From Vallitaleaceae bacterium (GTDB taxonomy: Bacteria; Bacillota; Clostridia; Lachnospirales; Vallitaleaceae): a DNA stretch of 64,000 nucleotides. Made by a program: the position numbers and the translations under genes. Where the stretch lies: NCBI GenBank assembly GCA_963677885.1, contig OY782500.1:5098136-5162135 (forward strand). Direction: 5' to 3'. The notes below the pieces were generated by a model that was not told where the DNA came from, did not search any database, and saw only the letters and a list, made by a program, of their open reading frames with translations. Positions 488-61,105 of the stretch are shown piece by piece. Position 1 is the stretch's first letter; each line of letters starts with the position of its first letter.

Positions 488-780
488 AAATTTACTACTT
501 ATGTAGTTCATGATTAAGTTTATAAGACCATGATAAAGGCAGTGACGGAGACAAGTTTTTGGAATAACTGTTTGCAGAGAATCGGTGGTTGGTGAGAACC
601 GATAACAGAACCGGAAGCGTATCACTCCCAAGCTTTGATAGTGAATCGAGTAGCTAGCAACGTAGAGCCGCGTTAAGGCCAAGGGTTTGTTAGAACCTAG
701 TGAGATACCTGTATAGGTAATTAGGGTGGTACCGCGATTTATACTCGCCCCTACGATGTTGTAGGGGCGGTTTTTATATA
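488..780 (+). promoter_or_regulatory. T-box riboswitch leader of the ilv operon (amino-acid-specific tRNA-sensing antiterminator)
   Basis: Canonical T-box sequence AATTAGGGTGGTACCGCG at 718-735. It overlaps an intrinsic terminator, CGCCCCTACGATGTTGTAGGGGCG plus a T-run, at 746-776. An AGAGA motif lies upstream. The element sits between the promoter and ilvH. Confidence 0.8.
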
Positions 781-2582: not shown

Positions 2583-4175
2583 ATGGGCAAGAACATTGTA
2601 ATATACGATTCAACCTTAAGAGATGGGGCGCAGGGAGAAGGGATTTCTTTTTCTGTACTGGACAAGCTAAACATTGTAAAAGCGCTGGATGAACTCGGTA
2701 TTCCTTTCATTGAAGCCGGTAATCCTGGTTCAAATCCTAAGGACCTTGAGTTTTTTGAAGAAGTAAAGAAGATGGAACTTAAGCAGGCTAAGCTTGTAGC
2801 CTTTGGTTCTACCAGACGTAAAAATGTTAAGGCCAGTGAAGATAGACAGATTCAGTCCATTCTTCAAGCTAATACAGAATATGTTGCAATATTTGGAAAA
2901 AGTTGGGACTTCCATGTTACTGACATTATCAATACAAGCTTAGATGAAAATTTAAAGATGATTCAGGATACCATTGAGTTTATGAATGAAAATGGTAAAA
3001 AAGTCGTTTATGACGCTGAACATTTCTTTGACGGATATAAGAATAACAAAGAATATGCCTTACTTACACTGGTGACCGCTGCTCAGGCAGGCGTTGAAAG
3101 TATTGTTCTTTGTGATACTAATGGTGGTACGTCGCCATCTGAGATTGCTGCTATAACTAAGGATGTTGTCTCCAAAATAGAAGGATCCATCGGTATCCAC
3201 TGTCATAATGATATAGGAACGGCAGTTGCCAACTCTGTACTTGCTGTGGAAGCTGGTGCTGACCATGTTCAAGGAACCCTGGTAGGTTTTGGTGAACGTT
3301 GTGGTAATGCCAACCTGACACTTATTATAGGAAATCTTCAGGTAAAAGGTGATTATATCTGTATACCTGAGGACCAGATAGAGAACTTAACCGGTGCTGC
3401 AAGACTGGTTGCAGAAACTGCCAACATCGTCCTTGATCCAGGTATGGGATTCGTTGGTAAACATGCCTTTACCCATAAGGGTGGTATGCATATTGACGGG
3501 ATTAATAAGTCTACTAAAAGTTTTGAACATATAGAACCTGAATTGGTTGGTAACTCCAGACGTTTCCTGATGAGTGAAGTTGCCGGAAGAACCCTCCTTC
3601 TTAAGAAGGTTCAGAAAATTGCCCCAGAGATTGAGAAAAATTCACCGGAGACTATTGCTTTAATGGACCGACTTAAGGTCTTGGAACATGAAGGCTACCA
3701 ATTTGAAGGTGCTGAGTCTACTTTTGAACTGATTATCCGTAAGGAACTTGGTAAGTACAAGCCATTTTTTGAACTTAAGTATTTTAAGATTATGGGAGAG
3801 AAACCAAGTGTTGATGAGAACTTTTCTGCCTATGCTATGGTTAAAGTCCATGTGGAAGGTGAAGACAAGATTTGCGCCGCAGAAGGTGATGGTCCTGTCA
3901 ATGCCTTGGATATTGCCCTTAGACAAGCTGTTGAATCCTTCTATCCAAATCTTAAGAAGCTTCATTTGACCGATTATAAGGTAAGGGTTCTTGATTCCAA
4001 GGATGCATCAGCAGCCAAAGTTCGTGTTCTCATTACCTCATCCGATGGGGAGAAGACCTGGACTACCGTTGGTGTTTCTACTGACGTTATCGATGCTTCC
4101 CTTATAGCTCTTGTTGACTCCATTGAGGTTAAGTTAATCAGAGATTTGGAAGAACAGGCTAGACGATTTATGTAA
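2583..4175 (+). CDS. cimA: citramalate synthase / LeuA-family 2-isopropylmalate synthase (Geobacter CimA-like, about 530 aa)
   Basis: IYDSTLRDGAQ HMGL-like N-terminus and a C-terminal LeuA-dimer regulatory domain. Overall colinear, from memory, with Geobacter-type (R)-citramalate synthase. Start chosen at ATG 2583 (RBS AGGAG 7 nt upstream) rather than TTG 2577. Confidence 0.75.
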   Translation: MGKNIVIYDSTLRDGAQGEGISFSVLDKLNIVKALDELGIPFIEAGNPGSNPKDLEFFEEVKKMELKQAKLVAFGSTRRKNVKASEDRQIQSILQANTEYVAIFGKSWDFHVTDIINTSLDENLKMIQDTIEFMNENGKKVVYDAEHFFDGYKNNKEYALLTLVTAAQAGVESIVLCDTNGGTSPSEIAAITKDVVSKIEGSIGIHCHNDIGTAVANSVLAVEAGADHVQGTLVGFGERCGNANLTLIIGNLQVKGDYICIPEDQIENLTGAARLVAETANIVLDPGMGFVGKHAFTHKGGMHIDGINKSTKSFEHIEPELVGNSRRFLMSEVAGRTLLLKKVQKIAPEIEKNSPETIALMDRLKVLEHEGYQFEGAESTFELIIRKELGKYKPFFELKYFKIMGEKPSVDENFSAYAMVKVHVEGEDKICAAEGDGPVNALDIALRQAVESFYPNLKKLHLTDYKVRVLDSKDASAAKVRVLITSSDGEKTWTTVGVSTDVIDASLIALVDSIEVKLIRDLEEQARRFM

Positions 4176-4231
4176 GAACAGCTCCTTTGAGCATAAGAAT
4201 ATATAAGATAAAATGATGAAAGAGGTACAGT

Positions 4232-5302
4232 ATGAACTATAATTTAGCAGTCATTAAAGGCGACGGAATCGGTCCTGATATTGTAGATCAGGCTATCAAA
4301 ATACTTGATAAAGTAGGAGATAAGTACGGACATACATTTAACTATACTGATGTTTTGGCAGGTGGAGTTGCCATTGATGCAACTGGTGAGCCTTTGCCAC
4401 AAGAAACCATTGATGTTTGTAAGGCTTCTGATTCAGTCATCCTTGGTGCAGTTGGTGGATGGCAGTGGGATCACCTTCCAGGTGAAAAAAGACCCGAAAA
4501 AGCCTTGCTTGGACTTCGTGCAGCTCTTGGCTTGTATGCCAATATCCGTCCGGCTATGCTTTATAAAGAGTTAAAGGCAGCTTGTCCAATCAAAGATGAA
4601 ATTATTGGCGACGGTCTTGATATTGTTGTTGTTCGTGAACTTACAGGCGGTATTTATTTTGGTGAAAGAGGCCAGGGAACCGGCGAAAATGGTGACTTTT
4701 CTTTTGACACCATGATGTATTCAGAAAAAGAAGTTGAAAGAATAGCAAGAAATGCTTTTGAAATAGCTATGAAGAGAGGCAAGCGTCTTTGTTCAGTAGA
4801 TAAGGCCAATGTACTAGAGAATTCAAGACTTTGGAGAAAAGTAGTTCTTGAAGTGGCAAAAGACTATCCAGAGGTTGAACTTTCCCACCTTTATGTTGAT
4901 AATGCAGCTATGCAATTGGTTATTAATCCAAAGCAGTTTGATGTTATCGTAACCGGTAATATGTTTGGTGATATTCTTTCCGATGAAGCAAGTATGATTA
5001 CAGGATCAATCGGTATGTTGCCATCAGCGTCTATTGGATCTTCCAAACTTGGTATGTATGAGCCGATTCATGGTTCTGCACCTGATATTGCAGGACAAGA
5101 TAAGGCTAATCCAATAGCGACTGTTTTGTCTATGGCTATGATGCTTCGTTATTCTTTTGATCTGGAAGAAGAAGCTTTGGCTATTGAAAAAGCAGTTGAA
5201 AAGGTTCTTGAAGAAGGTTACAGAACCGGTGATATTATGAGTGACGGTTGTACACTTGTTGGTACAACAAAAATGGGCGAACTACTTTGCGAAAGAATTT
5301 AA
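4232..5302 (+). CDS. leuB: 3-isopropylmalate dehydrogenase
   Basis: 356 aa with isocitrate/isopropylmalate dehydrogenase motifs ([34 protein letters not shown]). Confidence 0.9.
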
Positions 5303-8723: not shown

Positions 8724-8750
8724 GCAGCCTTCGGGCTGCTTTTCTTTTTG
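8724..8750 (+). terminator. intrinsic terminator after ilvB
   Basis: GCAGCCTTCGGGCTGC hairpin followed by TTTTCTTTTT. Confidence 0.6.
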
Positions 8751-8763
8751 GGTTTTTTGGGTT

Positions 8764-8912
8764 GGGGGTCCTGGCTTGCCCGGGTCCAGGGCACTTGGCA
8801 CCCGGTCGGTGATTCCCAAATTTGGACATATCCCCATTATGGAGATATGACCATACCAAATTCGTGAGTCAAGGCCCAGATGCCAAGACCCAGGACCCAG
8901 ACAAGCCAGTCG
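8764..8912 (-). repeat. GC-rich hairpin repeat element, copy 5 (minus orientation)
   Basis: The minus strand reads GGCCTTGACTCACGAATTTGG ... CCAAATTTGGGAATCACCGACCGGGTGCC, matching the core of the other copies. Terminal arms GTCCTGGCTTGCCCGGGTCC... and ...GGACCCAGACAAGCCAGTC are mutually complementary. Local GC is far above the flanking sequence. Confidence 0.5.
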
Positions 8913-9130
8913 CAACCAGAAACTCTAAAAGAATAGAGTGAAAAGACTGCGATCCGAGACGCTAGGCTCTTCGAGCCGGCGCGACGACCCTCGTTGAGGG
9001 GAGATACGGTTATGATCTTCAAGTTGATATAAGAACTTCTGATTTATCTAATTTCCGTCGGAAGTTCCCAGCTGGCCGGTTCGGAACGAACCCACAGCGT
9101 CAACAACATATTCCATTCCTGTCTTATGGC

Positions 9131-9275
9131 GACAGGGGGCTGGTCCTTAGGACCTGGTGGTTGGGCTTTGATTCACGAATGTGGTTAGTAGACTTCCCAA
9201 TTAAACAATCTCTCAGCCACATTTGGGTATCACTCGCCCGACCAATAGGTGCCTAAGGACCGGCTCCCGTCCCTC
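9131..9275 (+). repeat. GC-rich hairpin repeat element, copy 1
   Basis: Core GGGCTTTGATTCACGAATGTGG ... CCACATTTGGGTATCACTCGCCCG. Terminal stem GGGGGCTGGTCCTTAGGACC pairs with GGTGCCTAAGGACCGGCTCCCGTCCC. Confidence 0.6.
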
Positions 9276-9379
9276 ATATCACAAGAACGGAAAAAGTTAT
9301 TGACAATGATTCTTCATTAGAATATAATTAGGTTAAGCCTAACTAATTAATTTAAGTTAGAAAAAGTAACAGGCAGGAA

Positions 9380-13666: not shown

Positions 13667-13719
13667 TGGTGTTTGGAGAGTTATGTAGTATGAATTAAGA
13701 AGGAATATGTTTATATAGG

Positions 13720-13866
13720 GACGGCAGGCAGGCTGCATATCCTATCTCGCGGGCAGGTGCCCCACGAATGCGATGAGATCATCTCTAAAGAGATGATGTT
13801 TGACGCATTCGTGACTCAAAAGCCCACGAGACAGGACAAGCAACCCACCTGCCTGTTGTTATATAA
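13720..13866 (-). repeat. GC-rich hairpin repeat element, copy 4 (minus orientation, diverged)
   Basis: The minus strand reads GGGCTTTTGAGTCACGAATGCG ... CATTCGTGGGGCACCTGCCCG, matching the family core. It holds an internal palindrome, CACGAATGCG...CGCATTCGTG. It lies about 50 nt after the hom stop. Confidence 0.5.
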
Positions 13867-14021
13867 AGATATATTTATTAAAAGCATAAGTCATAAAAGA
13901 TAAATACCACCAACCCGAGCTGTGGCTTTGTTGGGCGGGGAGGGTATTGGTTTGATGTTGGTTGAATCGCTGGGTAATATTTAGAAGTATGATTTGTAGG
14001 TAAATATCTGAATAACAAAAA

Positions 14022-14052
14022 AAGCCTCCAGAGCGAGGAGGCTTCAAGACAT
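14022..14052 (-). terminator. intrinsic terminator (mainly for the minus-strand EAL-HDOD transcript; A-run on the other side makes it possibly bidirectional)
   Basis: GCCTCCAGAGCGAGGAGGC hairpin with a T-run on the minus strand and an A-run on the plus strand. Confidence 0.6.
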
Positions 14053-14085
14053 ACTTATTGAATTTTATCTGAGAAACCGGGCGTA

Positions 14086-14257
14086 GACTCCGATTTGTAA
14101 TACACAAGGTGTGGGCTTAGGGTCTTGCTGGCTGGGCTTTGATGCACGAATGTGTTAAGGTTTATCTCATTTGAGTAAACATGAGTCACATTTGGGCATC
14201 ACTCGCCCTGCCAGTAAGAGCCCTAGGCCCGCACCTGTCCCCATTACAAATCGGAAT
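14086..14257 (+). repeat. GC-rich hairpin repeat element, copy 2; its 3' arm overlaps the stop codon of the EAL-HDOD gene
   Basis: Core GGGCTTTGATGCACGAATGTG ... CATTTGGGCATCACTCGCCCTG. Stem GGTGTGGGCTTAGGGTCTTGCTGG pairs with CCAGTAAGAGCCCTAGGCCCGCACC. An outer perfect 11-bp inverted repeat, CGATTTGTAAT/ATTACAAATCG, contains the TAA (revcomp TTA at 14244-14246) of the convergent gene. Confidence 0.6.
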
Positions 14258-15470
14258 TCAAAAATTCATAGAGCTGATTAGCCCAATCCACAGCACCAAT
14301 ATATAGATCAGGAAAAAAAGCAAAGTCCAGGTTAATAGATTTGGCGTATTTTTCGGCTTGATCAAAGTCGCCTTGCTCATAGGCCAAGGCAAGACGAAAG
14401 ACGTTGCTGTAGATGGTTTCTCTGAGTAGGAGTGTATCTTTTATATGTTTGGTAACCGGCAGTTCTGCCAGTGCATCTTCCATTGAGACTTCAAGAAGGG
14501 CATCTATAACCGATAGTAGACCTGTAAGTCTGAGTTCATGTATATGTTGGGAGAAGGCGCTTTTCATAGCGATATTTTCCAGAAATTTCATTCGTTGCAT
14601 AGCAAGGCGCAGTATTTCACTGGGCTTGTCATTGGTCAGTTGATGGATAGTGGCCAGGGTGAACCACTGACTGAAGGCCTCAATACCTAGGATAGAAAGA
14701 CAGTGCTTGATGGAGCTGACATTGTCCACCAGGGAAAATGAGGAATTGACCAGTTTCAGGAGTTTATAGGTTAAGGAAACTTCTGATTCGATGATTTCTG
14801 TTATTTTTTTGTATTTTGGTTCCGGTTCATCCAGTTCTTTCATGATTTCCACATAGTGATAGGCGGCGCCTGATAGACGTTTCTTTTTAACGATCGTTGG
14901 TTTGGCGAAGAAGTAGCCTTGGAAAAATTCAAAGCCGATTCGTTTGGCCCATTCGAATTCTTCTTTTGTTTCGACCTTTTCGGCCAGGAGAATTTTATTC
15001 ATGTCTTTAAGTTCAACACAGATCCGTCGTATATCCATATCAGTATTGGCTCTGAAATCAACTTTGACGATATCAGCCAATTCTAGGATTTCCTTATGGG
15101 GATAGCCGGAGATATAGTCATCTAAGGCAATAATATAGCCGTCTCGTTTGTATTCTTTAATTTTGGTAAGAAGTTCTTTCGTAGGAACGACTGATTCCAG
15201 AAGCTCGATGACCACCTTGTCCTTATTAAGAAGCCTTGGAACATCATCTAAAATCAGCAAAGGGCCGAAGTTAACAAAGGCCTTCTTCTCCTGGGTCAGG
15301 TGATTAAGACCGAATGATAGGTATGAGTTTAACAAAAGTATGGATGTTGCTACAGAATCCCGAAGACTGGCATCATAGAAATTCTTTTCGTTGCTTCGGT
15401 AAAGTAGCTCATATGCGATAACTTCATGAGTACTATCGAAAATTGGCTGTCTGGCGACGTAAACGTTCAT
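14244..15470 (-). CDS. EAL domain (c-di-GMP phosphodiesterase-like) plus HDOD domain protein
   Basis: N-terminal EAL-type fold (QPIFDSTHEVIAYELLYR) and C-terminal HDOD-like region, 408 aa. The last three codons and the stop lie inside repeat copy 2. Confidence 0.75.
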   Translation of the reverse strand: MNVYVARQPIFDSTHEVIAYELLYRSNEKNFYDASLRDSVATSILLLNSYLSFGLNHLTQEKKAFVNFGPLLILDDVPRLLNKDKVVIELLESVVPTKELLTKIKEYKRDGYIIALDDYISGYPHKEILELADIVKVDFRANTDMDIRRICVELKDMNKILLAEKVETKEEFEWAKRIGFEFFQGYFFAKPTIVKKKRLSGAAYHYVEIMKELDEPEPKYKKITEIIESEVSLTYKLLKLVNSSFSLVDNVSSIKHCLSILGIEAFSQWFTLATIHQLTNDKPSEILRLAMQRMKFLENIAMKSAFSQHIHELRLTGLLSVIDALLEVSMEDALAELPVTKHIKDTLLLRETIYSNVFRLALAYEQGDFDQAEKYAKSINLDFAFFPDLYIGAVDWANQLYEFLNSDL

Positions 15471-22988: not shown

Positions 22989-23029
22989 TATGTTTGGGTT
23001 ATTTATGGGAGTATCAAATTAGAGTTGAA

Positions 23030-23093
23030 ATATAGAGCTAGTCACTCCGCCCTTGCGCACTTCGTGAAGCCGGTCTGAGCAACTAGCTCTATA
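23030..23093. repeat. perfect 13-bp inverted repeat (ATATAGAGCTAGT / ACTAGCTCTATAT) flanking a 38-bp GC-rich spacer
   Basis: Read directly from the sequence. It sits at the boundary between clpE and the low-GC islet. Confidence 0.5.
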
Positions 23094-23407
23094 TTTCTGC
23101 TTAACTGGATATGCATAAAATTATAAATTATTGATAAGTTTACATATATAGAGTTAGAAGAAGTGATTTCTAGATATAGTATATAAGTTTTACAAACATA
23201 TACCTTACACAACCAAGAAGCTTAGCAAAAACCATAGAATAATCATAAACGCCTTAGAAATGCAAGATCCTTCAAGGTTCACAATTTTCTATAACTTCCT
23301 GACACTTCTCAGAACTCCATAGGTCTCTCCAGAAATCTTCAAAACGCTAAAATCTCCCACTTCCATTCATGACCCCCAACACAAACCACCCACTACATCA
23401 ATATATG

Positions 23408-23600
23408 ACACAAGGTGTAGGCCTAGGGTCTTGCTGGTTGGGCTTTGGCTCACGAATGCCTCTTGCATTGCTGTATCATTGTTCCTAACCCAGGCATTTG
23501 GGATCCACTCGCCCGACTAGTAAGAGCCCTAGGCCTTGCACCTGTCCGTTATACATTGAATGTCACCCTAGGCCTGCACCTGTCCGTTATAAATCGATTG
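23408..23600 (+). repeat. GC-rich hairpin repeat element, copy 3 (with a 26-bp internal direct duplication of its 3' arm)
   Basis: Core GGGCTTTGGCTCACGAATGCC ... CATTTGGGATCCACTCGCCCGACTAGTAAGAGCCCTAGGCC. The 5' arm ACACAAGGTGTAGGCCTAGGGTCTTGCTGG is nearly identical to copy 2. The 3' arm CTAGGCC(T)TGCACCTGTCCGTTATA occurs twice (23531-23556 and 23567-23592). It ends 8 nt before the stop of the convergent gene. Confidence 0.6.
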
Positions 23601-23602
23601 TA

Positions 23603-24424
23603 TTATTTGTTGTATATTCGAATTTGTTCGTCGAAGGAAACTAAGTTTATAAGATAGTCAGGTAGCTTTATAGAAGTGTAATAGTATTCAGCTTCCTCCT
23701 TACTAATAGCCTCAATATAATTTTTGGAATAATTCTTATCGGGACTTACATACCTTAGCATAAAGTCTACAGCCTTATTATAGGCTATAGCAGCTTTGTG
23801 GATGGATTTGTAGTGGCCGATGGTTACATAACCCTTAAGATGGATTTTGGCCTTGTAAACGAAGGATCCCTTGTGGACAACCTGTTCAACACCAAGGTAG
23901 GGGTTACGGATTTTAATGTTTTCATATCTGAAATTGTTTCGATTACCGTCAATAAAGAGATAATCTTTGCCATAGGAGGCGTAATTCCGGATACCGTAGC
24001 GGGACAGTATATTGGTTTGCATACCGTAGTCATTGACAAAAAGGTAGTTACCCTTGGCGAAAATCTTGTGGGAGGAGTAGAAGAATAGGTCATCAACATC
24101 AAAGATTAGGATCCTGTCCTGGTCCATATGATAGGTGAAATAGTTTTTGGACAGGTAAATAGGGGTCTTGAAATAAAGACCATTGTCCCGGAAGTTCATG
24201 ATGATCACCCATTTTTCATAGTCCATGGACTGGTCCGTATTCATATAGTCATCCAGTTTATAGAGTTTGCGGTCTAAGACCTTCTTAGCCAGTTTATAAC
24301 AGTTTTCTGCAATATTCCGGTCAGAGGATGAGCCTAGGCTGATATGACGGCCCTTATGTGTGATGGAAACCCTGTAGTAGACGTCTCCATTTTTTTTCTT
24401 TGTTTGATAGATACCTTTAGCCAT
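23603..24424 (-). CDS. AP2-domain / HNH_3-like putative homing-type endonuclease (AP2 - HNH-like - AP2 architecture)
   Basis: N-terminal GIYQTKKKNGDVYYRVSITHKGRHISLGSSSDRNIAENCYKLA fits the AP2/integrase-arm pattern (YRV...KGK.I.LG.F...E.A..AY). The central IDGNRNNFRYENIKIRN resembles the HNH_3 motif (HIDGN..NN...NL), but the usual His before IDGN is Phe. A second AP2-like segment is VYKAKIHLKGYVTIGHYKSIHKAAIAYNKAV. The locus has low GC. Confidence 0.55.
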   Translation of the reverse strand: MAKGIYQTKKKNGDVYYRVSITHKGRHISLGSSSDRNIAENCYKLAKKVLDRKLYKLDDYMNTDQSMDYEKWVIIMNFRDNGLYFKTPIYLSKNYFTYHMDQDRILIFDVDDLFFYSSHKIFAKGNYLFVNDYGMQTNILSRYGIRNYASYGKDYLFIDGNRNNFRYENIKIRNPYLGVEQVVHKGSFVYKAKIHLKGYVTIGHYKSIHKAAIAYNKAVDFMLRYVSPDKNYSKNYIEAISKEEAEYYYTSIKLPDYLINLVSFDEQIRIYNK

Positions 24425-47997: not shown

Positions 47998-48015
47998 GTC
48001 TGAAAATATTTTTTT

Positions 48016-48441
48016 GGGGGTCAAGTTACCGACTGTGGCCAGGCTGGCGCCTTAGGATGTCTTTCCGGTCGCGGTCAAGGCATTAAGTGGATCTAAGGGT
48101 CAGAGAATTGCCAAAAAGTTATAAGTTGGGCAAATATTGGGTGGGGGTCAAGTTACCGACTGTGACCAGGCTGGCGCCTTGGGATGTCTTTCCGGTCGCG
48201 GTCAAGGCATTAAGTGGATCTAAGGTTCAGAGAATTGCCAAAAAGTTATAACTTGAACAAATCTTGGGTTATGTAATTGAGAAGGGAAGGTTGTGAGCAA
48301 GTGTTCAAGTTGTTAAGGAAATTTCTGCAAGCAGAAATTGGATTATATTTTTGACAAAGCTCTGATCCTAAGATCCACTAAATACATGCCCAAAGCCCGG
48401 CAAGACACCCCAAGGCGCCAACCCGTCCACAGTCGCTAACT
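48016..48441. repeat. junction element R1: two tandem 127-bp units of arm A, the conserved core in reverse orientation, then an inverted A arm
   Basis: Unit A, GGGGGTCAAGTTACCGACTGTGGCCAGGCTGGCGCCTTAGGATGTCTTTCCGGTCGCGGTCAAGGCATTAAGTGGATCTAAGG(G/T)TCAGAGAATTGCCAAAAAGTTATAA, sits at 48016-48142 and 48143-48268. The core holds the palindrome TTTCTGCAAGCAGAAAT (48321-48337). The reverse-complement A arm is at 48363-48441. Confidence 0.7.
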
Positions 48442-48503
48442 TTCGGTTTCGCATTATGTCTTGACGGTTGGTCGTGTGTGTGGGAGTATCCGTATTAATT
48501 ATG

Positions 48504-48533
48504 TTGACAATAATCAAATGATAGATATACAAT
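48504..48533 (+). promoter_or_regulatory. sigma-A promoter for the first GNAT gene (TTGACA, 17-nt spacer, ATACAAT)
   Basis: Read from the sequence; about 25 nt upstream of the ATG. Confidence 0.45.
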
Positions 48534-48558
48534 TTTTTTGGGGAAGGAGCGAGATGTC

Positions 48559-49026
48559 ATGAGTGAGAATTTTTCTATTAGAGAAGATGATTTGACGAAC
48601 GATAGGGTTGTTGAGCTTGTTTTAGATCATAAGAAAGCTATGTTGGCTATTAGTCCCAAGGAGAGTGTCCATGCTTTGGATTTGGAGGAGCTTCGTAGTT
48701 CTGATATAAGTTTTTGGACCATTTGGGATGGCGATGCCTTGATGGGATGTGGAGATTTGAAGGCTTTAAATGAGCTGGAAGGTGAGATTAAGTCTATGAG
48801 AACCCATGTCTCCTATTTGAGACAGGGTATTGCAGGGAAAATGCTTGACCATATTATTAGGAATGCAAAGGCAAGAGGCTATAAAAGACTGTATTTGGAA
48901 ACGGGTTCCAGGGATGAATTTATTCCTGCTCACAAGTTATACGAGAAGTACGGCTTTTCTAATTGCGGTCCTTTCGCTGACTATGTAGAAGATGACCATT
49001 CCCGTTTTATGTATCTAGAACTCTAA
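48559..49026 (+). CDS. GNAT-family N-acetyltransferase
   Basis: About 155 aa with a GNAT acetyl-CoA motif region (LRQGIAGKMLDHIIRNAKARGYKRLYLET). Start chosen at ATG 48559 (RBS GGAAGGAG). Confidence 0.8.
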   Translation: MSENFSIREDDLTNDRVVELVLDHKKAMLAISPKESVHALDLEELRSSDISFWTIWDGDALMGCGDLKALNELEGEIKSMRTHVSYLRQGIAGKMLDHIIRNAKARGYKRLYLETGSRDEFIPAHKLYEKYGFSNCGPFADYVEDDHSRFMYLEL

Positions 49027-49040
49027 AAATAATATAGTAG

Positions 49041-49338
49041 GAGCAAGTTACCGGTCGTGGCTAGGCTGACGCCTTGAGGTGTCTTGCTGGGCTTTGGGCA
49101 TGTGTTTAGTGGACCTTGGATTCAGAGCTTTGTAAAAAATATATTCATATATCTGCTTGCAGAAATTACCCTGACAACTTGGGCACTTGCTCTCAGCAAC
49201 CTGACCTTAATAACTTACCCAAGATTTGCCCAAGTTATAACTTTTTTACAATTCTCTGAACCCTAGAGCCACTTAATACCTTGACCGCGACCAGAAAGAT
49301 ACCTCAAGGCGTCAGCCTTGCCATGACAGGTAACTGTC
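49041..49338. repeat. junction element R2: A arm, conserved core of about 120 bp, inverted full A arm (long hairpin, stem about 85 bp)
   Basis: The 5' arm is CAAGTTACCGGTCGTGGCTAGGCTGACGCCTTGAGGTGTCTTGCTGGGC...TTAGTGGACCTTGGATTCAGAGC. The core is ATATCTGCTTGCAGAAATTACC...CAACTTGGGCACTTGCTC...TTACCCAAGATTTGCCCAAGTTATAACTTTTTT. The 3' arm is the reverse complement of unit A. Confidence 0.7.
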
Positions 49339-49379
49339 AACCACAAAATGACCAAAGACTAATGTAACCAGGAGAGAAA

Positions 49380-49892
49380 ATGCAATTATATAAACCAAAA
49401 TTAGAGGAACTAAACTACAGAATGAATCTCATGTCAGATCCTCAAACCATGTCCTACAACAAGGACCTGGATTTAGACTTTGAAGGGTATCATAAGGATA
49501 CCGGCTGCATCGACTTCCCAAGAGATACGTGGAAGACTTGGTATGATTATTGGATGGAAGCTGAACCCACAAGATTTTATGCCTATTTGAAGGTCAAGGA
49601 TCAACTAGTAGGAGAAGTAGCGCTCAGATATGTAGAGGCTCAAGGTGCCCATATGATCAACATCATTATAGACTCCAGACACAGAGGAAAAGGCTATGGC
49701 AAAGAAGGCCTCCAACTATTACTTAAAGTTGCCTTCAAAGATCTTAACCTAGAAAAAGTCATCGACGACTTCCCCATTACCAGAACTACCTCTATAAACC
49801 TCTTTCAGTCACTAGGATTTCATTCCCAAATCAAAGACAATCTCATCACCTTTTCACTAACCAAATCCCAATACCATGCCTTGAATATTTAG
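49380..49892 (+). CDS. GNAT-family N-acetyltransferase (RimJ/RimL-like)
   Basis: 170 aa. IIIDSRHRGKGYGKEGLQLL matches the GNAT motif A pattern. Confidence 0.8.
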   Translation: MQLYKPKLEELNYRMNLMSDPQTMSYNKDLDLDFEGYHKDTGCIDFPRDTWKTWYDYWMEAEPTRFYAYLKVKDQLVGEVALRYVEAQGAHMINIIIDSRHRGKGYGKEGLQLLLKVAFKDLNLEKVIDDFPITRTTSINLFQSLGFHSQIKDNLITFSLTKSQYHALNI

Positions 49893-49987
49893 TATTAAAT
49901 ATAATCCAATAGGCTATAGTCTGTATCCAAAACAAAAAGCCAATAACTAAAAGCCAACAACGTAAGGAATTTCCCATAACGAAACCG

Positions 49988-50340
49988 AAAGCTCAGGGAC
50001 AGAGACGGCCAGCCATGCCTTGTCACTTGGGTTTTGCACGCTATTTTAGTGAGACTTAGGTTGACGAAGGTGTCAAAAATATATTCAAGTTTCTGCTTGC
50101 AGAAACTACCTCAGCAACTTGGGCACTTGCTCACAGCTATCTGACTTAAATAATTTACCCAAGATTTGCCCAAGTTATAACTTTTTGGCACTTTCATCAA
50201 CCCTAGTCTCACTTAATAGATGTGCACTCCCAGGAGATAAGGCATGGCTGTGCGTCTCTGTCCTTGAGCTTGACAATCTTAATAGATGTGCACTCCCAGG
50301 AGACAAGGCTTGACTGGCCGTCTCTGTCCTTGAGCTTGAC
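49988..50340. repeat. junction element R3: B arm, the same conserved core, inverted B arm duplicated in tandem
   Basis: The 5' arm AGCTCAGGGACAGAGACGGCCAGCCATGCCTTGTC... The core is nearly identical to R2 (AAGTTTCTGCTTGCAGAAACTACC...CAACTTGGGCACTTGCTCACAGC...TTACCCAAGATTTGCCCAAGTTATAACTTTTTGGCA). The 3' arm AATAGATGTGCACTCCCAGGAGA(T/C)AAGGC...GTCTCTGTCCTTGAGCTTGAC occurs twice (50207-50273 and 50274-50340). Confidence 0.7.
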
Positions 50341-50414
50341 ACCTCTCCTTTATTGTCAAACTCCTCCAATCTAGAGTATAATATAAGAGCTATAGAGAAG
50401 AACAGGAGGTAACC

Positions 50415-51672: not shown

Positions 51673-51769
51673 GCAGGGATGACTTTGCAAGTCAATATTG
51701 CAAAAAAGGACTAAATATGTTAGAATTGGCCTAATCGAAAAAGGCTAGGATAAGAACCAGTAAATACAT

Positions 51770-52006
51770 GGGATTTTAAGAGAGAAGATGGGTGGTGTAA
51801 ATCTTCATGAAAGTGTATTGAACCTCTCTTTGAGCTTTGAACCGAACGTATAAACCAGTAGGCTTCAACGGATGTCCACCGTTATCAGGAAAGGATATAA
51901 CCGGTCTTTGACCCGGAAAGTATCTATGAGTGCAGATTTGTTCTGAATTTAGGTGGTACCACGGATTAACCATTCGCCCTAAGCTATATAAGCTTAGGGC
52001 TTTTTT
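51770..52006 (+). promoter_or_regulatory. probable T-box leader (variant T-box sequence) upstream of proS
   Basis: AGAGAGA at about 51775. T-box-like AATTTAGGTGGTACCACGG at 51945-51963, with a UGGU bulge candidate for the tRNA ACCA end. Terminator GCCCTAAGCTATATAAGCTTAGGGC plus TTTTTT at 51976-52006. Another 195 nt of hairpin-rich leader lies before the proS start. Confidence 0.5.
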
Positions 52007-60734: not shown

Positions 60735-60995
60735 TAATAGAAGAGTAGGTGGTTTTGAGGAAGATAAAGCCGGCTCTTATATGAATAAGAATTATATAAT
60801 TACGTTGATAAAGAAGAGTAATTCGTCATTGTCTTGACCAGTGATTCCGGGCTAGTGTGAACCGGGACAGGAAACCGAATGAAGGCGCTTTGGAGTAATC
60901 TTAATTAAGCGGATACGGATGTATCAATTAGGGTGGAACCGCGGATAGAGTAATCTTTTCGTCCCTTGTCTGGGAGAATTGGATTACTTTTTTTG
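60735..60995 (+). promoter_or_regulatory. glycine-specific T-box riboswitch leader of glyQS
   Basis: T-box sequence AATTAGGGTGGAACCGCGG at 60926-60944. It overlaps a terminator (AGTAATC...GATTACT plus TTTTTTT) ending at about 60995. The classic glyQS context is established knowledge. Confidence 0.85.
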
Positions 60996-61105
60996 TACCA
61001 AATTTTAGACTTATGTATAAGCGCTTATGTCTAGTAAGGAAGTGATCTTCTCCAATCCACACGTTGGATGAACACTATAAAGGCATAAAAGAAAGGAAGA
61101 TGAAC

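Follow-up and report, generated by a model that had tools for sequence, protein, structure and literature searches.

We found that an EAL-HDOD gene in a Vallitaleaceae genome takes its last three codons and its stop codon from copy D of a repeat family, a near-perfect 167-nt hairpin read from the sequence at positions 14089-14255 of the window, by which we mean the whole 64 kb stretch of DNA analysed here. The family is so far undescribed. In our best reading, which we hold with moderate confidence, it is an interspersed repeat of paired hairpins, non-coding, restricted to a lineage and of a MITE/REP/BOX-like kind, that sits on the gene end by accident. The family would then spread or persist as a selfish element selected for its single-stranded sense fold, and the overlap of copy D with the stop codon would be incidental.

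Copy D and the end of the EAL-HDOD gene

The EAL-HDOD gene (14244-15470, minus strand) is a c-di-GMP signalling gene of 408 aa, with PF00563 and PF08668 assigned on an identical database protein (P0001). Copy D is an R-type hairpin module whose sense form lies on the plus strand, delimited from the sequence, by RNAfold and by a covariance model that matches 14086-14257 (172.7 bits, E 7e-47). Its parts are an outer stem rich in AT, a bulge of GUCCC, a long GC-rich stem that covaries, the conserved core and an apical loop that varies, and the predicted fold has -102.7 kcal/mol for the sense and -90.0 kcal/mol for the antisense form (RNAfold). The 5' outer arm (TCCGATTTGTAAT, 14089-14101, plus strand) is the perfect 13-nt complement of the 3' outer arm (ATTACAAATCGGA, 14243-14255), and the latter is coding on the minus strand, where it reads TCC GAT TTG TAA, the Ser-Asp-Leu-stop of the ORF 14244-15470, with the TAA at 14244-14246 inside the outer stem. 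An earlier note on this DNA had described a repeated hairpin element that supplies the last codons and the stop of this gene. Both points are borne out, the first by the core pattern, nhmmer and covariance model searches given below and the second by the place of the last three codons and TAA in the outer stem. The outer inverted repeat reported there is also present, at 13 bp when the sequence is read and not the 11 bp given.

The terminal sequence of D recurs where nothing is encoded. The end of D (...GTCCCCATTACAAATCGGAAT) aligns with the non-coding ends of copy E (GTCCGTTATACATTGAAT) and of a tandem duplicate of the end of E (GTCCGTTATAAATCGAT). The terminal 10-mer of D (TTACAAATCG) is identical at 9/10 positions to that of the duplicate (TTATAAATCG), with the GTCC motif equally far away in both, and is similar to that of E (TTATACATTG), which is likewise non-coding. 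Because the same terminal sequence occurs in the non-coding E and its duplicate, the Leu and Asp codons and the TTA that is read as the stop belong to the element, and on this comparison of sequences the codons S-D-L-stop are repeat sequence. Alternatively, S-D-L-stop could be ancestral, the distal hairpin arm having become complementary to it secondarily with the gene end not remodelled at all; the tails YEDL, SEEL, YTDL and YEEL, which are seen in orthologues, none of them known to carry the element, would fit this. We consider it highly improbable in view of the terminal match to E and its duplicate and of the AT-rich outer stem of this type in all copies, and a 13/13 complement that arose by drift would be implausible.

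For the protein, the effect judged from the sequence is trivial or neutral, amounting to three residues and a stop with nothing conserved gained or lost. Among 132 full-length homologues, the tail beyond the conserved W-x-E-x-L-F-x-F-L/M motif has 1-25 residues (median 4), and the closest orthologues end in FLSEN, FLSE, FLNS or LLEHS. The tail of the window protein, NSDL, has 4 residues, a length typical for the protein family, and the remodelling of the gene end that had been envisaged earlier is thus minimal. The overlap with the stop codon would be tolerated because the C-terminal tail is unconstrained. If exactly 14089-14255 were excised, on the assumption that these are the boundaries, the gene would read ...EFLN-VYARFLR-TAA and would end 18 nt before the terminator stem.

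This terminator stem belongs to an intrinsic-terminator-like site at 14045-14011 on the minus strand, inside the spacer between copies C and D, which consists of a 9-bp stem (14045-14021) followed by the T-run TTTTGTTATT. The site lies beyond D, which places the element between the EAL-HDOD gene and a terminator-like site, as had been claimed. The predicted 3' UTR is accordingly about 200 nt long, 155 nt of which is hairpin, and EAL transcription would be expected to pass through the antisense form of D to the terminator-like site in the spacer. Relative to the orthologous locus L013 described below, the site falls within extra DNA, so it may have come with the C-spacer-D block and may not be the ancestral terminator. 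The hairpins as such were ruled out as intrinsic terminators because they lack a U-tract after them, no T-run following any copy on either strand.

Copies, fold and strand bias of the repeat family

The core pattern gave five matches in the window (0.00 expected), and nhmmer and the covariance model likewise detected five copies, with E-values of 1e-33 to 1e-47. Besides D, these are copy A (8763-8916, minus strand), beyond the predicted ilvB terminator at 8724-8749; copy B (9118-9290, plus strand), the partner of A, which ends about 10 nt before the promoter of a marR-family gene; copy C (13706-13872, minus strand), the L-type inverted partner of D, which starts 40 nt past the hom stop codon; and copy E (23395-23563, plus strand), an R-type module downstream of a minus-strand AP2-like gene (23603-24424). 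Two more copies were found in a Vallitaleaceae MAG, on contig CAXXSW010000004.1 (locus L001), namely G (4173-4348, minus strand; covariance model) and F (4636-4804, plus strand; core pattern and covariance model), which brings the total to seven. With lengths of 154-173 nt, five copies in 64 kb and no conserved ORF, the repeats are small, non-coding and multicopy like MITEs, which span about 100-400 bp, and they are far more diverged than is usual for active MITEs, at pairwise identities of 41-66%. By identity, C and G form an L-type (66%) and B, D, E and F an R-type (56-66%), with A as an outlier.

The AP2-like gene encodes 273 aa with two AP2-like segments recognised by eye and without a Pfam match. 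It is syntenic beside clpB in relatives, and its product is 67% identical to the protein at relative locus L011. No evidence of an HNH domain was found to justify the HNH label previously attached to this gene.

In each copy, folding gives a hairpin of 57-67 base pairs. Across an alignment of six sequences, 26/44 consensus stem pairs are changed on both sides, compared with 9.5 +/- 2.3 pairs in column shuffles (0/500 reach 26) and 4-13 in slid controls. The conserved part is the middle of the stem and not the termini. In copy D this core occupies 14134-14208 on the plus strand and is composed of GGGCTTTGATGCACGAATG, a 36-nt variable apex and CATTTGGGCATCACTCGCCC; the pattern matches the five window copies and F. 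Its consensus, GGGCYTTGAY.CACGAATG ... CATTTGGG.ATCACTCGCCC, includes a fixed asymmetric internal loop and G·U pairs at fixed positions, and its two halves are imperfect inverted repeats of each other inside one hairpin. The core is nearly invariant between the two species, and the core halves of B and F are identical. A K-turn or loop-E motif was considered for the core by eye and did not fit. The outer stem that follows the conserved GUCCC bulge is AT-rich in every copy and has complementary ends (13/13 in D); from copy to copy these ends vary in sequence, with no more than a loose TTATAAAT-like consensus in common.

The two strands of the hairpins are not equivalent. We define the sense strand as the strand carrying the core, which for D is the plus strand, opposite to the EAL mRNA. 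The sense fold is stabler than its complement by 12-20 kcal/mol in every copy. When the arms were compared in a strand-neutral way, with Watson-Crick pairs alone counted as matches, the mismatches of the sense strand were G·T in 41 cases and A·C in 11, with the same direction in 7/7 copies (p = 4e-5, indicative only as the cells are not independent). This bias and the stabler sense fold suggest that a single-stranded sense form, either RNA or DNA, is under selection.

A function as host RNA could explain the strand bias and the conserved core equally well. The hairpins might be a family of sRNAs, or cis-acting leaders or insulators, copy D then being an RNA gene antisense over the EAL end. Strong covariation at low sequence identity, the wobble pairs at fixed positions together with the sense-strand bias, and the near-invariance of the core between two species all speak for such a role. 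However, there is no promoter-like site in the spacers and no U-tract after the sense hairpins, trans-acting sRNAs do not usually contain near-perfect duplexes longer than 60 bp, the family has no Rfam relative and no copy in the syntenic DNA of the six relatives, and sense transcripts from A, C, D and E would enter housekeeping genes antisense. A host RNA is therefore unlikely in our estimation.

Paired arrangement, neighbouring genes and relatives

The copies form three clear inverted pairs in which an L-type module on the minus strand is followed by an R-type module on the plus strand, A/B, C/D and G/F, separated by 201, 213 and 287 bp respectively (200-290 bp overall), and E has a degenerate partner at best. 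We note, with low confidence, that a short hairpin with a core-like loop (GGCTTCACGAAGTG) at 23025-23100 on the minus strand, about 295 bp left of E, may be such a degenerate partner; it scores just 10.5 bits and its core is deleted, and it was left as a possibility. The A/B pair is not orthologous to the pair in L001, since the neighbouring genes differ and the latter lies between rplL and rpoB, in an intergenic region of 1061 bp (3977-5037) that houses it.

Within the three pairs, the spacers share no mutual similarity in either orientation and include no plausible ORF and no promoter-like site; the C/D spacer (13873-14088), for example, has no ORF and is unlike the others. They are not strikingly structured either (best z = -2.6). 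A composite transposon with a conserved middle is ruled out by these unrelated, ORF-free spacers without marked structure. Two of them have a GC content of 47-48%, against 24-37% typical of intergenic gaps without repeats or T-box leaders. There are three T-box leaders in the window (533-755, 51738-51984 and 60796-60969), the only matches in it above the Rfam gathering threshold, and they lie upstream of an ilv/leu cluster, a prolyl-tRNA-synthetase-like gene and the gene at 61064. G-poor, C/A-rich tracts resembling rut sites (G 9-14%) were seen at 23255-23394, at 13900-13960 on the minus strand and at 4500-4620 of L001. A C/A-rich leader was rejected as a feature of the family; it occurs upstream of C, E, F and partly B, and is absent at A, D and G.

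Five of the copies are antisense to a gene whose 3' end faces them (A to ilvB, C to hom, D to the EAL-HDOD gene, E to the AP2-like gene and F to rplL), and the other two are in sense orientation upstream of a gene (B before marR and G before rpoB). In the earlier note, the antisense orientation of four of the five window copies had been taken to suggest either an insertion preference for gene 3' ends or a 3'-UTR stabiliser or processing site. The count is correct, but it is no evidence for a 3'-UTR function, because the orientation follows from the (-)...(+) pairs, in which incoming genes meet the antisense form and outgoing genes have the sense form upstream. The flanks of the pairs are gene 3' ends in 6/8 cases, which is not significantly more than 50% (one-sided binomial p ~0.15).

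As a 3'-UTR module, the hairpin would block 3'-to-5' exonucleases or serve as an RNase III processing site and so tune expression of the upstream gene. Copies C, D and E do follow stop codons by 40, 0 and 3 nt, the antisense form folds at -67 to -90 kcal/mol, most pair flanks are gene 3' ends, and for ERIC, BOX and Correia repeats an influence on the mRNAs transcribed with them has been reported or proposed (PMC2229807, PMC3049150). Against this, the orientation is explained by pair geometry, the 6/8 flanks do not reach significance, the structure is better kept on the strand absent from these mRNAs, and relatives have the same genes without the element. Furthermore, the transcripts of ilvB and rplL are predicted to terminate before A and F are reached (for rplL at 5025-4998 and 4899-4887 of L001), and B and G end just short of strong promoter-like sites. 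The promoter-like site after B (9300-9328) is a perfect sigma-70 site (12/12) that is conserved in relative L011, and the one after G (4160-4132 of L001, before rpoB) matches at 11/12 positions with an extended -10. Two of the three clear pairs, A/B and G/F, are thus in terminator-promoter gaps and probably outside the flanking mRNAs. This placement and the fold bias towards the opposite strand leave the stabiliser or processing-site reading unsupported, and we think it improbable.

The promoter of the marR-family gene itself is a perfect TTGACA-17-TATAAT, and the palindrome TTAGGTTAAGCCTAACTAA comes after it (9293-9360 in the window; 14211-14290 in L011). Promoter and palindrome are conserved in L011, the EAL protein of which is 61% identical, and copy B ends exactly at the start of this conserved block. 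From its sequence and position, the palindrome is probably an autoregulatory operator of the marR-family gene.

We compared six syntenic loci from relatives whose EAL proteins are 58-66% identical over their full length. At L013, hom and the EAL-HDOD gene are convergent as in the window, with a gap of 22 bp versus 577 bp in the window, and in the other five loci the gap past the EAL gene is 13-132 bp. Similarly, clpB and the AP2-like gene are 17 bp apart in L011 and 97 bp apart in L012, versus 685 bp in the window. The covariance model found no copy in the ~104 kb of syntenic DNA from the six relatives. On presence or absence, the comparison of orthologous EAL-HDOD loci that the earlier note had proposed shows the element in the window and in none of the six syntenic relatives, the nearest complete orthologues being at most 66% identical. 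Since relatives are without it at the orthologous site, most plainly in the 22-bp hom/EAL gap of L013, the element behaves like an insertion, with empty and filled sites as expected of a MITE, at an EAL protein identity of 58-66%. From sequence comparison, the empty sites would fit either insertion or loss, and either one block or two hairpin insertions into an older, longer spacer. The course of events that we favour would have brought the C-spacer-D block, in the window lineage, between hom and the EAL-HDOD gene, which are convergent, with the right end of the block on the last EAL-HDOD codons, and its AT-rich outer stem would now provide Ser-Asp-Leu-TAA. Selection on the single-stranded sense form would keep fold and core, and its simplest source would be the means by which the family is propagated.

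A closer relative is represented by SRR22103809 (L015), with 89% nucleotide identity on a contig of 1068 bp that stops 230 bp short of the stop codon. The gene call for its EAL-HDOD homologue gives 247 aa and closes with ...SSFPW in place of the ...SSFSLVDN of the window, which might reflect a frameshift or a faulty assembly in the relative.

Beyond these loci, the family is rare. A core pattern equivalent to 21 bases found one true extra locus, L001, in 596 Gb of genomes, only chance matches in metagenome contigs and nothing in viral contigs, and blastn found nothing in plasmids or phages. In Rfam 15 no copy reaches a gathering threshold; at E<=10 there were generic miRNA-hairpin matches only, far below threshold, and no match to any attC model in the library.

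A second, larger hairpin family is present in the window at 48015-50345. Its three hairpins (48142-48446 on the minus strand, 49040-49340 and 49985-50280 on the plus strand) are ~300 nt long, fold at -137 to -155 kcal/mol and are stabler on one strand (G·T 16 versus A·C 4), with outer stems that covary. They have the same (-)...(+) geometry, flanking the GNAT acetyltransferase ORFs 48538-49026 and 49380-49892, and the family was not found in any of the loci from relatives. Homology of the two families was considered and rejected, the resemblance being limited to a local CTTGCTGGGCTTTG stretch in an unconvincing alignment. Tandem duplications of the 3' arm or 3' end occur at three places across both families (48015-48268, 50212-50341 and 23564-23600; 127, 64 and 37 nt), and suggest a common slippage or abortive-insertion process. 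The last of these is a duplicate of the final 37 nt of E on the plus strand, and 3 nt separate it from the stop codon of the AP2-like gene.

Pairing on opposite strands, the conserved centre, the divergence of the copies and the 3'-arm duplications keep three alternatives alive, the sense-strand RNA and the 3'-UTR module discussed above and attC-like recognition sites. In attC sites, structure is conserved over sequence, recognition is strand-specific and single-stranded, and the sites lie at ORF 3' ends; they are 57-141 nt long, with R/L boxes at the base and extrahelical bases, in co-oriented arrays beside intI. If the present hairpins were single-stranded DNA recognition sites of an attC- or REPIN-RAYT-like kind that bound mobile segments, with the spacers and the GNAT genes as cargo, one could account for a structure kept over sequence, for a strand bias in which G·T is the best-tolerated DNA mismatch, for the constant (-)...(+) geometry in both hairpin families, for the unrelated spacers of which two are unusually GC-rich, and for the 3' arm being tandemly duplicated at three places. 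We nevertheless regard this as quite improbable, as there is no recombinase or HUH gene nearby and no Rfam match including any attC model in the library, the conserved sequence is mid-stem and not at the hairpin base, and the sense strands of a pair are opposite, unlike attC arrays or IS200/IS605 ends. Identity with attC itself is ruled out by model, geometry and context, the present hairpins being arranged in inversion and conserved mid-stem in a Firmicute host, with no integrase in the window. By analogy, the 170-nt and 300-nt hairpins might together be strand-specific sites of an undescribed Clostridia recombination or foldback-transposition system with inverted L/R boundaries and small cargoes, which we think distinctly unlikely.

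The same pair geometry also counts against the interspersed-repeat reading that we prefer, because the sense strands of paired modules are on opposite DNA strands. It fits neither a single-strand (IS200/IS605-like) transposon nor double-strand recognition of terminal inverted repeats, for which no G·T bias is expected. The divergence of the copies, the conservation of mid-stem rather than termini, and the lack of a target-site duplication and of a transposase, recombinase, reverse transcriptase or HUH gene in the window count against our preferred reading as well.

Relation to known repeats and meaning for the lineage

A repeat-encoded stop codon is already known from BOX repeats, which overlap the very 3' ends of 36 pneumococcal genes and supply their stop codons, with no evidence that the proteins are truncated, and which have been proposed to act on co-transcribed mRNAs (PMC3049150); by this analogy, the present overlap is not novel in kind. 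The likeness to BOX, and also to RUP and SPRITE, extends to their being non-coding, strongly folding, intergenic repeats of Firmicutes. However, BOX is modular (boxA-boxB(n)-boxC) with >100 fairly similar copies, whereas the present family is made up of individual long hairpins with 41-66% identity, a conserved mid-stem core and an arrangement in inverted L/R pairs, and has no sequence similarity to BOX.

MITEs such as Correia/NEMIS and ERIC/IRU are 100-200-bp imperfect palindromes whose transcripts form long stem-loops, and co-transcription with neighbours, effects through RNase III or RNase E and ORF fusions are described for them (PMC2229807). They have conserved terminal inverted repeats, a TA target duplication and high similarity between copies; in Correia/NEMIS, found in Neisseria only, the conserved terminal repeat is 26 bp long and an IHF site is optional. 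By contrast, the present family has variable termini with ends unrelated in sequence, a conserved centre and a Vallitaleaceae host. When the flanks were read, no TA or other target-site duplication was found at any hairpin or pair. The Correia-type likeness drawn in the earlier note does not hold for this reason, and also because the copies are 41-66% identical rather than near-identical.

REP/BIME and REPIN elements are palindromic, intergenic repeats with two inverted half-sites that form a single-stranded hairpin, and they are maintained as long-lived populations in lineages. REPs are 20-40 nt long, carry a conserved tetranucleotide of the GTAG type and are associated with a RAYT gene; the present hairpins differ in their length of ~170 nt and the absence of a GTAG motif. 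There is no transposase, recombinase, reverse transcriptase or HUH gene in the window, the proteins of which are housekeeping and regulatory only. The family is thus akin to MITE, REP/REPIN and BOX repeats in kind and homologous to none of them.

For the EAL-HDOD gene the overlap matters little, given a C-terminal tail without conservation. Its influence, if any, would fall on the 3' end of the mRNA or on the termination of translation at the foot of a hairpin of -90 kcal/mol, and RNase III cleavage of the 65-bp duplex, 3'-end protection and ribosomes melting the base of the stem at termination are plausible secondary effects on the EAL mRNA. The wider meaning concerns the family. Drifted sequence with a kept fold, a mid-stem core, strand bias and L/R pairs go beyond ordinary MITE biology, and the family provides a test case for telling selection by the host from selection by an element's own propagation on an RNA or single-stranded DNA fold. 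If the recombination reading were true, the hairpins would be a functional analogue of attC cassettes with another geometry, with the 200-290-bp spacers and the GNAT acetyltransferase genes as cargo. For annotation, the present case is a warning that repeats can be the source of gene ends and terminators in this lineage.
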